Sequence record: OZ413489.1 | DNA: 64,000 nucleotides | Reading direction: 5' to 3' (one strand) | Source: a phage | Part shown: piece after piece, positions 2,467-25,461 of the stretch | How positions within the stretch are numbered: the stretch's first letter is position 1 | How the letters are laid out: every line of letters starts with the position of its first letter | Translations under genes and position numbers: made by a program | Notes under the pieces: model-generated | Databases searched by the model: none | The model's input: the letters and a program-made list of their open reading frames with translations, nothing else | Told to the model about the DNA's origin: nothing

Positions 2467-4896
2467 ATGAGCATGTGGTCGTTCGACTTTGAGTCATCCG
2501 GTTTGCTGGAAGACCCAGATCTTTATTATCACTGCGGCCTGTTTAAAGAGCTGAATAAGAACCGTTTTATGCTGTTCCTTCCTCTAAATGACCGCACACA
2601 CTACTCCGAGGAGGATATAGAAAAGGCTAAGAACTTCATTCTGGCAAAGAAAACTCTTTATAAAGATTTTGAAGTTCGCATAGCAGATTTTTCAGAGTTG
2701 GAAGGTTGGCTTACAGGAAATTCTGACTGGTCACCAACAGCTTTGAACTGCCATAACTGCTACAGTTATGACTTTATGCTGATGGAAAGATTATCTGGTA
2801 TTCATTTTGATATGTTCCGTGATCCTAAATGTATGGGGACTATCAACGATCACCAGGTTAACCTGTTTGATACGTTGGCGATGAGCCGAATCTTGTGGCC
2901 TGATCGCCCTTTACCAAAAGGTTGTCCGGACTCTGTATTCAACCCGGTTACTAAGAAAATGCAGCCTGTTGGTCCTCACGGCCTTATGGCATGGGGCTAC
3001 GCCCTTGGTAACCAGAAAGTTCAAATTGATGACTGGCGCGATCTTCCGTTGTGGAAGTATGTGGATCGTGTATTCGAGGACGTTATCATCCAGGAGCTGC
3101 TCTGGAAAGAGCTGGTAGCGGAATCAAAAGGTGTATTCTACGGCAAATCTGACATGCAGAACTTTATGTACGATCCGGCCAAAGAGAAGCCGAAAGGGTT
3201 CAAGAAGATCACCTGGAAGAACGCATTACGTCGAGGCATGCTGCAGCACTTCCTGATGGAGCTGCAGGCCCGTCAGGGTGTATACTTCGACATAGATGGA
3301 GCTATTGCTTTACGTGACCGTTGCGATGCGTGGATGAAAGAAATCGCTGATCGTGTTGAACCACAACTACCTTTAAAAGAGCTGTCAATGTCTCAGCGGC
3401 CCAAGTTCCCTGAAAAGCCGTTTAACCAAGACGGGACAATCTCTAATAATGGTTGGAAATGGTTAAAAGATAAGCTTGGCTATCCTGTAGACATGAGTGC
3501 TTTAGAGTTCAAAGCCCTGCCTAAGCGAGCATTTACCTCTACAGGAGATGTCAGCAAGATGGGGATAAAATGGTGTGAAGAGATGGGCTGCAAAGACCCC
3601 GATAAGATGGCTGATTTCTTGAGAGGCTATATTAAGGGCACCTCCACACCACAACCCTTACCTAAAGAGCTGATGGATCAGGCAATAAGTGATCTGCAGC
3701 AGAAGCGAATGCCTGACTGCAAGATACCTATGAAAATCAGCAATCAGGACGACATCAAGCGATACCTAATCAGTGCTGGTTGGCTCCCAACAATGTGGAG
3801 AACTAAAGATGTAACTAAAGACAGCAAGAAGAAAGCTTTACCTGATGCAGATGTTGATGCACGAGTATATGCATATATGGACGAGCTTTTGGAGTCAGAG
3901 TATTGTGACCTAATTATCAACTTCTGGAACAAAACTGATGCTAAGTTCCAGACAACCGTGCACAAGTTCCGAAGCTTTCCTAACTCCGAAAGGATTAAAA
4001 AGGAAGTATTCGGGAAAATACGTAGAAAAGCCAGGGCACTTATTACTTCTCCGCAACTGAAAGATACGTTTGGACACCTATGCCCAAATCTTGAAAAATT
4101 GAACGGAGAGATGGCTAAAGATATCGTCTTGTGGTTATCATTGCGAAACCGCAGATCGGTCCTTGATCCAATCAAGGAGGATAAGGTTGATACTGGTCTT
4201 CTTAATCACCCACGTTTGAAGATTGACCATAAGCTTCCTGCTAAAAGCTCTGGATTAACAAACACTTCCAGACAGAAACACAGTATTTGTGCAAACATGC
4301 CTAAACCATCTCCTAAAGTAGTTATGGGTAAAGAGATGCGTAGTCTGTGGGGTGTTCCTCCAGGATACTTTGAGATCGGTATTGACGGGTCCAACTTAGA
4401 GCAGCTCATCGGGGCTTGGGGTGCCTTTGAGTTCGACAACGGCTTGTATTATGATGTTGTAAGTAACGGAGACGCACACCAAAACAATGCTGAGGCATAT
4501 ACAAAAGTGGCAGGCAGAGAGGTGTCCCGTAACGACGGTAAACCTATCACGTATGGGGTTATGTACGGGGCACAAAAAGATAAAGTTGCAGATATGCTGG
4601 ACATCTCCCCAGAGTTGGGACAAAGGGTAATCGATGCACTCTGGGATGCCAACCCAGGTCTTAAGGGGCGCAAAGAGGATCTGGAGAAATTCTGGGAAGC
4701 AACAGGTAAGAAGTTTATCTACTCTTTTGATGGTCATGCTATCTGGACCCGATCTAAACACTCTTTACTTAATGCATACCAACAAAATGGCGGTGCATCG
4801 TTGTGTGACTTAGTTGGAATACTCATGCACCACCAGATGGTGAAGCGTGGGTGGTACGATGAAGGTGTTCGTCGTATTATTTATTACCATAAATAA
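2467..4896 (+). CDS. DNA polymerase, family A (T7 / Pol I type)
   Basis: 809 aa; N-terminal exo motif FDFESSG; motif A-like IGIDGSNLEQL; motif B-like KPITYGVMYGAQ. Confidence 0.85.
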   Translation: MSMWSFDFESSGLLEDPDLYYHCGLFKELNKNRFMLFLPLNDRTHYSEEDIEKAKNFILAKKTLYKDFEVRIADFSELEGWLTGNSDWSPTALNCHNCYSYDFMLMERLSGIHFDMFRDPKCMGTINDHQVNLFDTLAMSRILWPDRPLPKGCPDSVFNPVTKKMQPVGPHGLMAWGYALGNQKVQIDDWRDLPLWKYVDRVFEDVIIQELLWKELVAESKGVFYGKSDMQNFMYDPAKEKPKGFKKITWKNALRRGMLQHFLMELQARQGVYFDIDGAIALRDRCDAWMKEIADRVEPQLPLKELSMSQRPKFPEKPFNQDGTISNNGWKWLKDKLGYPVDMSALEFKALPKRAFTSTGDVSKMGIKWCEEMGCKDPDKMADFLRGYIKGTSTPQPLPKELMDQAISDLQQKRMPDCKIPMKISNQDDIKRYLISAGWLPTMWRTKDVTKDSKKKALPDADVDARVYAYMDELLESEYCDLIINFWNKTDAKFQTTVHKFRSFPNSERIKKEVFGKIRRKARALITSPQLKDTFGHLCPNLEKLNGEMAKDIVLWLSLRNRRSVLDPIKEDKVDTGLLNHPRLKIDHKLPAKSSGLTNTSRQKHSICANMPKPSPKVVMGKEMRSLWGVPPGYFEIGIDGSNLEQLIGAWGAFEFDNGLYYDVVSNGDAHQNNAEAYTKVAGREVSRNDGKPITYGVMYGAQKDKVADMLDISPELGQRVIDALWDANPGLKGRKEDLEKFWEATGKKFIYSFDGHAIWTRSKHSLLNAYQQNGGASLCDLVGILMHHQMVKRGWYDEGVRRIIYYHK

Positions 4897-4920
4897 CATT
4901 GTGGCTTCATAGAGTAATCT

Positions 4921-5079
4921 ATGTCGAATAACCTCTTTAACTGCGGGAAGCCTAAACCTTATGGCAAGGTAATCCGCAACGAAGCGCTCAAAAGAGCGAA
5001 CGCTCAGAGGCCATTCCGAAAGGAAGTAGACCAGCAAGTGCGGTCGAAATGGGAGGATTCCTGTGGTTGCTTATCATAG
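4921..5079 (+). CDS. small hypothetical protein (52 aa)
   Basis: ATG ORF below the track size cutoff in the gap after the polymerase gene; weak RBS. Confidence 0.3.
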   Translation: MSNNLFNCGKPKPYGKVIRNEALKRANAQRPFRKEVDQQVRSKWEDSCGCLS

Positions 5080-5163
5080 GAATATGAGATGGTCCGATCC
5101 TACGTGAAAACGTATGGCTATGCACGTAATGGTGCGGGGTAGCTTAACGACCTACCTGAACTA

Positions 5164-22584: not shown

Positions 22585-22848
22585 ATGAAACGTCTTGATC
22601 AGCTCAAATTAGTTCAATATATGGCTTATCGTGTTCTTGAAGTCCAGAAAGGTAGCAAAAAAGAGGTTTGCGAGAAAGCTTATAAGATCTTCACTCGCAA
22701 AAAAGATGACTGGATGCTACGCCAGACTAAAAAGGCTGACATCTTGGGGTACCTGGAAGAAGAGATCCGCCTTGAAGAGCAAGAAGAGATCCGCCGTAGT
22801 GAGGCAGATTATCAGGCAGCTTGGGAAAACTGGATGAGCAACAAATAA
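22585..22848 (+). CDS. hypothetical protein
   Basis: 87 aa ORF with AAGAGG RBS; last gene of the rightward block. Confidence 0.55.
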   Translation: MKRLDQLKLVQYMAYRVLEVQKGSKKEVCEKAYKIFTRKKDDWMLRQTKKADILGYLEEEIRLEEQEEIRRSEADYQAAWENWMSNK

Positions 22849-22867
22849 TACAACAAGGTGCACGGTC

Positions 22868-22893
22868 AGGGGCTTAAAGCCCCTTTCTTTTTG
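22868..22893 (+). terminator. rho-independent terminator ending the rightward block
   Basis: AGGGGC-TTAAA-GCCCCT followed by TTCTTTTTG. Confidence 0.65.
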
Positions 22894-23772
22894 TCTCCTC
22901 TTTTCCTACCACAAATGGCCCCGCCTGGCAAATGGAATAATCAACAAGCCAGCAATTAACCCCACTGTACAAACATACATATAAAATAACTATTGCATAA
23001 TTTTTCATTGTGTGGTAGCAGTGCCATTTTTACACGTTTTTCCTTCCAAAATTGCACGTAATGCAGCATTTGCACAAAATTTAACCTGATGCATATCTTC
23101 AATAGCTTGTCAACAACTAAAAATCTTTATAAGTCATACACTTACATAACTACAAAAACGTTTTCTACGTGAAAAATCGAGTATAACTATAGCCGCCAGA
23201 TCTCAGAATTTACGTACGCTCGCCATTCTATAGCCTGCTAAGCATTTATTCCAACCATAGAATAACGGAATAGTCAATACCTGCATAAAATAATTATTCG
23301 TGTAAACTGCATAACATAAATCGGCCCAGGTGTCAACATTTTTCGTAAACAGTCTGGAATTGTCACGTTAGGTTACCATAAGCAGAGAAATCTTTAGTCG
23401 TCTAATGTTTACTGTACATTACTATACTGACTGGAATCATTAGATGACTAAGAGAAAGATAAGAAATAATTAATAATGTAATTATTTTACCTGTAACAAT
23501 AAGGCAACTATGCAAACGAATGGCATGGCGCGACGGAGTCGCGACATAATATAAAAGCAGTAACCATCACCCCCGTGATAGTTTGTCTGCAAACTATTAA
23601 TCAGATCATAGTTGCCTTGTATTTAGTTAATCATGACATGACAAGCAAGGCAACTATAGATCTGCTAATAGTTGCCCTGCTTTTATATTATGTCATGCTA
23701 ATTATAATCAGTGCGATTATTGTCATGTATAATTATTGTCATGCAAACGAATGGCATGGCTGATTATCGGTG

Positions 23773-23859
23773 TGTAAACAGTCAATCATGTAAATGGTTA
23801 GCATGTGAACAATCAGGAATGTAAACAATCCAGTGTGTAAACTAATAGGTGTGTAAAAG
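23773..23859. repeat. iteron array: six TGTRAAMW octamers at about 16 bp spacing
   Basis: Copies start near 23773, 23789, 23804, 23820, 23836, 23852. Confidence 0.65.
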
Positions 23860-24001
23860 TGTCATGTTGTGTCAGTTAGGTCACATTATGTCAGACAAGT
23901 TTTTCTCCTCTTTGTCAAGTGCTGCATGAAAAATTTACAAGCTTGTATGGTAGCATTTTTGCGGCCCTGTTTACATTCAGTAATGTATGTATAATCCTTG
24001 T

Positions 24002-24165
24002 TGTGTGGGCGTTTAGACGTCTAGACGGTTGGAAGTCCACAGGTCAATATCTAATCTATCGGCTGCTAACTATATCCCACACATGTGTGGGCGTTTAGAC
24101 GTCTAGACGGTTGGAAGTCCACAGGTCAATATCTAATCTATCGGCTGCTAACTATATCCCACACA
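24002..24165. repeat. perfect tandem duplication of an 82 bp unit with 8 bp terminal inverted repeats
   Basis: Unit TGTGTGGG...CCCACACA at 24002-24083 and 24084-24165; internal palindromes AGACGTCT / GTCTAGAC. Confidence 0.8.
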
Positions 24166-25461
24166 AATAGTAAGAAATATGATTGTTATATGCGTAAACT
24201 GTAACTCATGTTATCAATCCCTGTATGGATCGCCAGTGGTGCGCATAATAGGTATTATGTTAAATTGCCCGTAATGATAACAGTTCTCACAATGATAGGT
24301 ATTCTCATTCATCCACACAAAATAGGTTGCAAATGTTGTGCCACTGTGTGAACGGCCTGGCCTATTAATTTCTCTCACTGCCTCGATATTTGAGAATTGT
24401 TATAAGAATGAGAAGTATTCCCATTCCGTCCGCCTGGCAGCACTCCTGTAGGTCCTGCAAGGACTCTAGCTGAAAGCTAGACCCTTCGGGCCTCCCTGTA
24501 GGTCAGGTCAAAATCGTGGTAGAATTGGGCCTGTTCAGATATTTCTGGCTGACTCTTCAGGTCTGTGTGGGAAAAGCCAACCTCTCCGGCGGGGCAGGGG
24601 GTCATGACGGGAAAATTGCAGGTCAATTAAAAAATTTACGTGGTGTATGAAGCGCTCTTCAGGTAAGGCATGTATTATGGGATGAAACCCTCTTCAGGCA
24701 ATGATATTTGTGGGTGTGATATTTGCTGGAAAGCCAGATATGACGGGACTCCCGGCGGGGATGGGGTAGTACAGACAGGGAAAATATGAGAATGTAGTTG
24801 GGGAAATTGATCAGACAGGTAGAGTATGGAATATGTTACAAGTATGTTAAATATGGAGGTTGAATATCTGTAGGATTTGTGTGTAAAATCAAAGACTTAA
24901 GGGGTGTTGTGGTATTTTCTATAAATAATTCAAGTTTAATAGGCAATATTTGTCTCTATCCGCTTTGTGTGGTAAACAGATTCAGATTAGATTGGTTTAC
25001 AAGTGTATACATAATATACAAATTAAAGATACAAGAAACCCCCCTCCCCCTTCGGCTACCATTCACCTTTTCCTCTGACTGGTACTTAAACACTTATTCA
25101 GACTCTTCAGGTTATCACCCATATATCATATGGCAGTGACTGGTGTCCTCCGGCCCCTCTTTCGTCACCCGTCCGCTTCGCCATGCTAATGCCATAGCCA
25201 ATGGTTCGGTTGTTCACTCTGTTCACTCAGGTGTATCTCCATACCCCTTCAAACCGAAGAGAACAGAAAACCCGAATTACTCGGTAAAAGAAAAGAGAAG
25301 AACTTAATTTTATCAGGATAGGCAAGAATGTCAAGGCATGACTGCTCACTAAACAAGCAAACAGTCATGTGTGGAAGGTAAGTGATTGTGGTGGTGGGAA
25401 ATTTAGTTGAAAGATGTGTTATAGGTGCTCCCAGCACTTTAGCCGGGTAGCTAATTGTGTG

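Follow-up and report, generated by a model that had tools for sequence, protein, structure and literature searches.

A phage sequence, record OZ413489.1, carries two identical 82-bp copies standing head-to-tail at positions 24002-24083 and 24084-24165 of the 64,000-nucleotide stretch that was analysed (the window). The locus raises a simple question: what has been doubled here? A perfect tandem of a short unit with inverted repeats at its ends could be taken for a tiny mobile element or a regulatory element, and it could equally be a piece of ordinary phage DNA that happens to stand twice in this genome. The question can be answered in steps, from the exact form of the repeat and its place in the genome to its copy number in relatives and the routes by which a second copy could have arisen.

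Structure and setting of the repeat

Tandem Repeats Finder reports a period of 82, 2.0 copies, 100% matches, no indels and a score of 328, and the identity of the two 82-mers far exceeds chance. It is the sole long-period array of the 64-kb window, a result with which a separate repeat search agrees. By inspection of the sequence, position 24001 is T, against an A as the last base of the unit, and position 24166 is A, against a T as its first base. Because these flanking bases mismatch the ends of the unit, the phase of the tandem is fixed and its junction is blunt, without microhomology. The copy at 24002-24083 is the counterpart of the single copy of relatives. The copy at 24084-24165, absent from relatives, is called the extra one, and either copy could be the new one.

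Each unit begins with TGTGTGGG and ends with CCCACACA (a pattern search of the window gave two matches, with none expected). These ends form an inverted repeat of 8 bp within the unit and of 9 bp in the single-copy context (T|TGTGTGGG...CCCACACA|A). The left arm of this ancestral 9-bp repeat lies at 24001-24009 and its partner at 24158-24166, so that both endpoints of the duplication fall, symmetrically, 1 nt inside the arms. At the junction between copies (CCCACACA|TGTGTGGG, 24076-24091) the abutting arms make a 16-bp perfect palindrome that occurs once in the window. Inside the unit are two overlapping 8-bp palindromes, AGACGTCT at 24015-24022 and GTCTAGAC at 24019-24026, with the second set at 24097-24108. 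The original prediction, made from the letters of this DNA, had described a perfect two-copy tandem of 82 bp with 8-bp terminal inverted repeats and overlapping internal palindromes, and this description holds in every part. A smaller co-varying hairpin or palindrome, TGGAAGTCCA (CAGAAGTCTG in many relatives), is found on the + strand at 24030-24039 and again at 24112-24121. A promoter-like TATAAT hexamer at 23990-23995 (+), lacking an acceptable -35 element, ends 6 nt before the unit.

The octamer TTGTGTGG, an inverted-repeat arm of the unit, is itself frequent in the window: it occurs 14 times against 3.2 expected, a count reached in none of 100 shuffles. Its sites include 19280, 22221, 37254 and 63414. 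At two of these, 19280 and 22221, its complement, CCACACAA, is flanked on one side by a GC hairpin and on the other by the ribosome-binding site that serves a + strand gene.

The phage itself is readily placed. About 120 phage records match the 2.2 kb around the repeat at 90-97% identity, all of them Vequintavirus, and by sequence comparison the window is that of a Vequintavirus (an rV5-like E. coli myophage). Over 24 kb, identity to the nearest genome reaches only about 96%; no sister close enough to date the duplication was found. The matching records include nineteen unannotated ones labelled 'Campylobacter phage' (MG0656xx, UNVERIFIED), which share about 93-97% identity with E. coli Vequintaviruses here; these are likely to be mislabelled or contaminant genomes.

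Around the repeat, convergent gene blocks leave a gene-free region of some 2.5 kb (22885-25460, from the nomo and Alma annotations). The + strand genes stop at 22848 and are followed by a terminator at 22868-22884 (+); the - strand genes enter the region from about 25460. Cumulative GC skew turns within it. The rV5 genome paper drew the same region as a 'non-coding' box with a skew change, and took the genome as circularly permuted (PMC3606486). Judged from the sequence, the 82-bp unit is non-coding.

Open reading frames at the locus were considered as genes and rejected. A 59-aa frame crossing the unit (23919-24098) is interrupted in many relatives. A 47-aa frame downstream of it (24208-24351) is broken in four of 25 relatives, and its variable sites, spread 9:7:8 across the codon positions, give no sign of third-position bias. 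A 31-aa frame from an ATG at 24179 has ATA in place of the start codon in most aligned relatives. Elsewhere in the window, a group I catalytic intron (Rfam RF00028) is matched over the full length of the model at 4881-5116 (+), with 64.7 bits against a gathering score of 50; it presumably interrupts a phage gene.

The terminal repeat that contains the unit

A direct terminal repeat (DTR) stands at either end of the linear genome as packaged, and terminase cuts at its edges. In the Vequintavirus vB_EcoM_Gotham the DTR is 459 bp long with defined ends (PMC7471380). Its record carries a repeat_region at 1-459 and at 136567-137025, and these two copies were compared here and are identical. Korf et al. 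give terminal redundancies of 458 bp for the Vequintaviruses EdH4 and HdK5 (PMC6563267). In the Klebsiella phage KPP-1, from another genus of the Vequintavirinae, a DTR of 514 bp was classed as T7-type by PhageTerm (PMC9862379).

The Gotham repeat aligns at 95% identity to 23894-24083 plus 24084-24434, and the 82-bp unit is the sole insertion. The records of Pr121LW, bov10K2, bov22_2, YN3 and ECP2303 start or stop at the equivalents of 23894 or 24434. In an alignment of 17 genomes, conservation rises a few bases before 23894 and falls shortly after 24434, with hypervariable flanks. From the Gotham alignment, the shared record ends and the limits of conservation, it follows that the unit sits inside the phage DTR. 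The DTR is collapsed to one copy in the record and maps to 23894-24434, which would give it a length of 541 bp (459 + 82). The unit lies 108 bp from its left edge and 269 bp from its right edge. The locus thus resembles the Gotham and EdH4/HdK5 repeats in sequence (about 95%), in its edges, in its position in the gene-free gap and in being confined to a single locus; it differs in that the repeat of this genome measures 541 bp and holds an internal 82-bp segment twice, as in no other record. Placing the physical genome ends at 23894 and 24434 is useful for the re-orientation and annotation of such records.

Short motifs stand just outside both edges. TGTCA at 23889-23893 (+) is a candidate half of a terminase cut site, with TGCCA as its mirror on the - strand at 24435-24439; the edges read TGTCA^GACAAG and TGCCA^GGCGGACGG. 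In KPP-1 the corresponding edges are TGCTA^GACGGACAG and TGCTA^AACACAAT (116311-116315 and 116830-116834 in record coordinates). In both phages TGYYA^ reads, at each edge, on the strand running into the repeat. Vequintavirus conservation starts exactly at TGTCA; rV5 has TGCCT at one edge. These matches are suggestive only, and TGYYA^ may be a symmetric terminase nick site. The motif was not found at the ends of the 82-bp unit.

The DTR as a whole is a conserved island flanked by hypervariable sequence, and within the 17-genome alignment conservation of the unit does not exceed that of the remainder. The left 70 bp or so (23894-23965: TTGTCAAG...AAATTTACAA...TTTGCGG) have a recognisable counterpart in the DTR of the Mydovirus KPP-1, whose record runs the other way. 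No counterpart of the remaining DTR, the 82-bp unit included, is recognisable in that repeat.

The flanks of the DTR are rich in repeats of their own. About 150 bp outside it, the segment 23494-23760 resembles a cluster of iterons or operators: ATGCAAACGAATGGCATGGC, a perfect direct repeat of 20 bp at 23510-23529 and 23741-23760, encloses four inverted copies of CAAGGCAACTAT/ATAGTTGCCTTG and a perfect 18-bp inverted repeat (23543-23560 and 23677-23694). Adjoining the left DTR edge, at 23773-23857, are about six TGTAAAC-like heptamers with a spacing of about 16 bp. This motif is enriched in the window (22 occurrences against 10.4 expected), and the segment itself is hypervariable between phages. 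To the right of the DTR (24436-24710 and 25101-25112) the motifs CTCTTCAGG(T), CCTGTAGGTC/CAGGTC and pairs of CCGGCGGGG(C/A)(A/T)GGGG recur, and this flank is also variable between phages.

Copy number in relatives

Relatives and sequence collections were searched for the two-copy state. Among the matches listed for a 251-bp query across the repeat, each record aligns as two pieces, 169 bp (251 minus 82), which corresponds to one copy. Murica is otherwise 100% identical to this query and has a single copy. A 48-bp query centred on the junction was run against 50,697 phage records (blastn, word size 11). Relatives give two 24-bp pieces 82 bp apart, with a best E of 2e-3, and none of the 50,697 records gives a contiguous match across the junction at E<1e-6. 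Nor was the junction found in IMG/VR or in GTDB genome contigs. Four further Vequintavirus contigs were recovered from IMG/VR and metagenome pattern scans, each of them single-copy. The metagenome degenerate-pattern matches L018, L020 and L022 were set aside as chance matches with no alignment beyond the 20-mer.

All 25 fetched loci hold one copy, and 20 distinct 82-mer haplotypes occur among them. In all, about 120 records, 25 loci and four metagenomic contigs have one copy each, at the same site. The two-copy state is found once among about 125 genomes. The unit has no other locus within the 64-kb window.

Since the copies show zero divergence and the relatives examined are single-copy, the duplication is taken to be recent; on these comparisons it is private to this sequence. 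Perfect identity had been read as either a recent duplication or concerted maintenance. Identical copies and single-copy relatives support the first alternative, and single-copy relatives rule out the second, as maintenance of a two-copy state. Because every other sequenced relative is single-copy, the tandem is a curiosity and not a new element.

Readings of the extra copy

The unit is best explained as an ordinary stretch of the non-coding Vequintavirus DTR that was very recently duplicated in tandem in this phage, most likely without consequence; the probability of this reading is put at roughly 0.6. An 8-bp inverted repeat falls at the exact ends of an arbitrary segment with a chance of about 4^-8, or 1.5e-5. 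Because this chance is so small, the inverted repeat is implicated in the duplication. Slippage mediated by microhomology was rejected, as there are no bases in common at either boundary.

The known cycle of T7-type repeats suggests how the inverted repeat could act. Staggered nicks at the repeat edges, together with strand-displacement synthesis, duplicate the single repeat found at a concatemer junction, and concatemers form via annealing of single-stranded repeats. Ligation of a hairpin-stabilized flap is a route to repeat expansion and tandem duplication. The following course may be proposed for this phage. (i) The DTR would be copied by strand-displacement synthesis at each T7-type regeneration of the repeat from the concatemer, and would be exposed as single strands when concatemers form. 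(ii) In single-stranded DNA the inverted repeat would close the 82-bp segment into a hairpin. (iii) Held in this hairpin, a displaced strand could avoid removal as a flap; its ligation would add exactly one unit without microhomology. (iv) The edges of the DTR and the identity of its two terminal copies would be untouched, and a repeat of 541 bp would still work. Since these features are unaffected, packaging should tolerate the longer repeat, and the extra copy is regarded as neutral, most likely with no function of its own.

The comparison has its limits. This DTR resembles T7-type repeats in being short, non-coding and exact, with fixed ends, and the mirrored TGYYA^ outside both edges fits symmetric nicking; the 82-bp unit lies well inside the repeat and its ends lack the edge motif, and a T7-like packaging mechanism is presumed for Vequintavirus. 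Flap ligation shares with this case a segment that an inverted repeat could close into a hairpin, and a junction without microhomology. It serves as a mechanistic analogy only, and the predicted DNA hairpin is weak, which counts against this step: as single-stranded DNA the unit folds no better than shuffles (z -1.4 and -0.9).

An artefact of assembly or of the record, in which a mis-joined overlap absent from the phage itself adds the 82 bp, is unlikely, though it is a chance to be taken seriously. The setting invites such errors: the DTR has double coverage and physical ends, Vequintavirus records are often re-circularized or rotated, and several start inside or at the DTR. A precedent exists in Shigella phage CM1 (MK962749, about 105.8-106.9 kb), which has a perfect 523-bp tandem at the same locus consisting of the DTR plus 64 bp upstream. 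The right edge of the CM1 tandem is exactly the physical end of the DTR, ...CCGTCCGCC; this is a record artefact, in which re-orientation seems to have left both terminal repeats in place. Vequintavirus records can therefore show perfect tandems here that are artefacts. The two tandems are alike in being perfect, two-copy and blunt at the junction, in the same genus. They differ in that the CM1 unit spans the whole DTR to its physical terminus, whereas the 82-bp unit is internal and bounded by inverted repeats; it is not the DTR (459 bp), and neither of its ends is at a DTR edge. The presence of the duplication in one sequence only, and a blunt junction such as concatenation would give, suit an artefact. 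Against this, the probability that arbitrary contig ends fall on a perfect 8-bp inverted repeat is about 1e-5, and the junction lies mid-window and not at a record end. The length was also counted against an artefact, 82 being even and not known to be among the k-mer lengths of common assemblers.

A selected role for the doubling, in which the 82-nt unit is a functional structured element and a second copy changes its dosage, is improbable. Such an element could be an RNA, either an early leader or a small RNA, with its start set by the TATAAT at 23990. It could also act in replication or packaging of the terminal repeat, as a hairpin of single-stranded DNA or as a module that binds protein. 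The hexamer ends 6 nt ahead of the unit, which favours such a start, but TTTACA lies only 14 nt upstream, leaving no usable -35, and a promoter and terminator scan found no sigma-70-type site or intrinsic terminator flanking the unit. A literature search found no relevant Vequintavirus transcriptome data. As RNA, the + strand of the unit folds at -26.1 kcal/mol (z -3.2 against shuffles; the - strand is weaker, z -2.2), which favours a structured transcript. The minimum-energy fold, on the other hand, has no double-sided pairs, as in shuffles, for 19 haplotypes that are about 95% alike and so of low power. Pair 5:78 of its closing stem is mismatched and uncompensated in eight of the 19. No Rfam family other than the group I intron matches the window at gathering scores, and a permissive scan of 22800-25400 gave nothing at E<=1. 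The small structured RNA of the original prediction thus finds no backing in Rfam or in covariation of the 82-nt fold.

Conservation of the motifs within the unit is uneven. Of 19 haplotypes, 15 retain the AGACGTCT palindrome, which speaks for a function, as does the conserved island formed by the DTR; GTCTAGAC is broken (as GTCTGGAC) in ten. About half of the haplotypes have a degenerate terminal inverted repeat, with CCCCCACA, CCACCACA, an extra C or GGTGTGGG. Further against a functional unit are its conservation, no higher than that of the remaining DTR, the lack of a recognisable counterpart in the DTR of another Vequintavirinae genus, and the rarity of two copies.

The part of the covariation check with a positive outcome concerns one small stem. 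In the 10-bp palindrome at unit positions 29-38, two of the three pairs of stem 29-31/36-38 change on both sides, with a score reached by seven of 500 shuffles at about 95% identity and with few linked haplotypes. The intermediates TGG..CTA, TGG..CTG and CAG..TTG are G.T wobbles on the + strand (G.U in RNA), apart from one A.C state. At most, this pattern suggests a dimeric protein site or a small hairpin, formed by the + strand as a transcript or as a single strand. As to the operator or recombination site of the original prediction, a protein site is possible only for this palindrome. Because positions 29-38 co-vary and the + strand RNA fold has a z of -3.2, some function of the underlying single-copy sequence is conceivable.

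Less probable again is a reading in which the inverted-repeat arms are themselves symmetric nicking or hairpin-processing sites used in replication or regeneration of the DTR, or in which the unit is a functional hairpin module of the packaging end. If both strands were nicked symmetrically at T^TGTGTGGG and the nicked ends then filled in and rejoined, the footprint would be the same as that of flap ligation. The duplication would then be a 'target-site-duplication-like' trace of staggered nicks 82 nt apart. If true, this would reveal a DTR-processing step that is new for this phage group.

A miniature mobile element (MITE-like or IS-derived) present as a tandem dimer is effectively refuted: MITEs and IS tandem dimers likewise have short terminal inverted repeats (8-9 bp here) and ends abutted at the junction, but the unit occupies one shared locus in every genome, none having an empty site (25 of 25 fetched loci), is found nowhere else in the window or in relatives (one place per record unless the DTR is written twice), shows no target-site duplication (the flanks CCTTGT| and |AATAGT have no common direct repeat), matches nothing in 5,426 E. 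coli genomes, varies in its inverted repeat and has no associated transposase. It thus lacks the multiplicity and the presence/absence polymorphism of such elements, and the earlier suggestion of a tiny mobile element falls on its one fixed locus.

Preference therefore stays with a recent, probably neutral duplication within the DTR. What looked like a tiny mobile or regulatory element is then a known, non-coding terminal repeat of phages in a longer version private to this genome, and carries little wider biological weight. The DTR itself was already known; new here is only the 82-bp variant with its unusual blunt junction bounded by inverted repeats. If confirmed, it would be a clean natural case of a tandem duplication associated with a hairpin, in a region that repeatedly passes through a single-stranded state.
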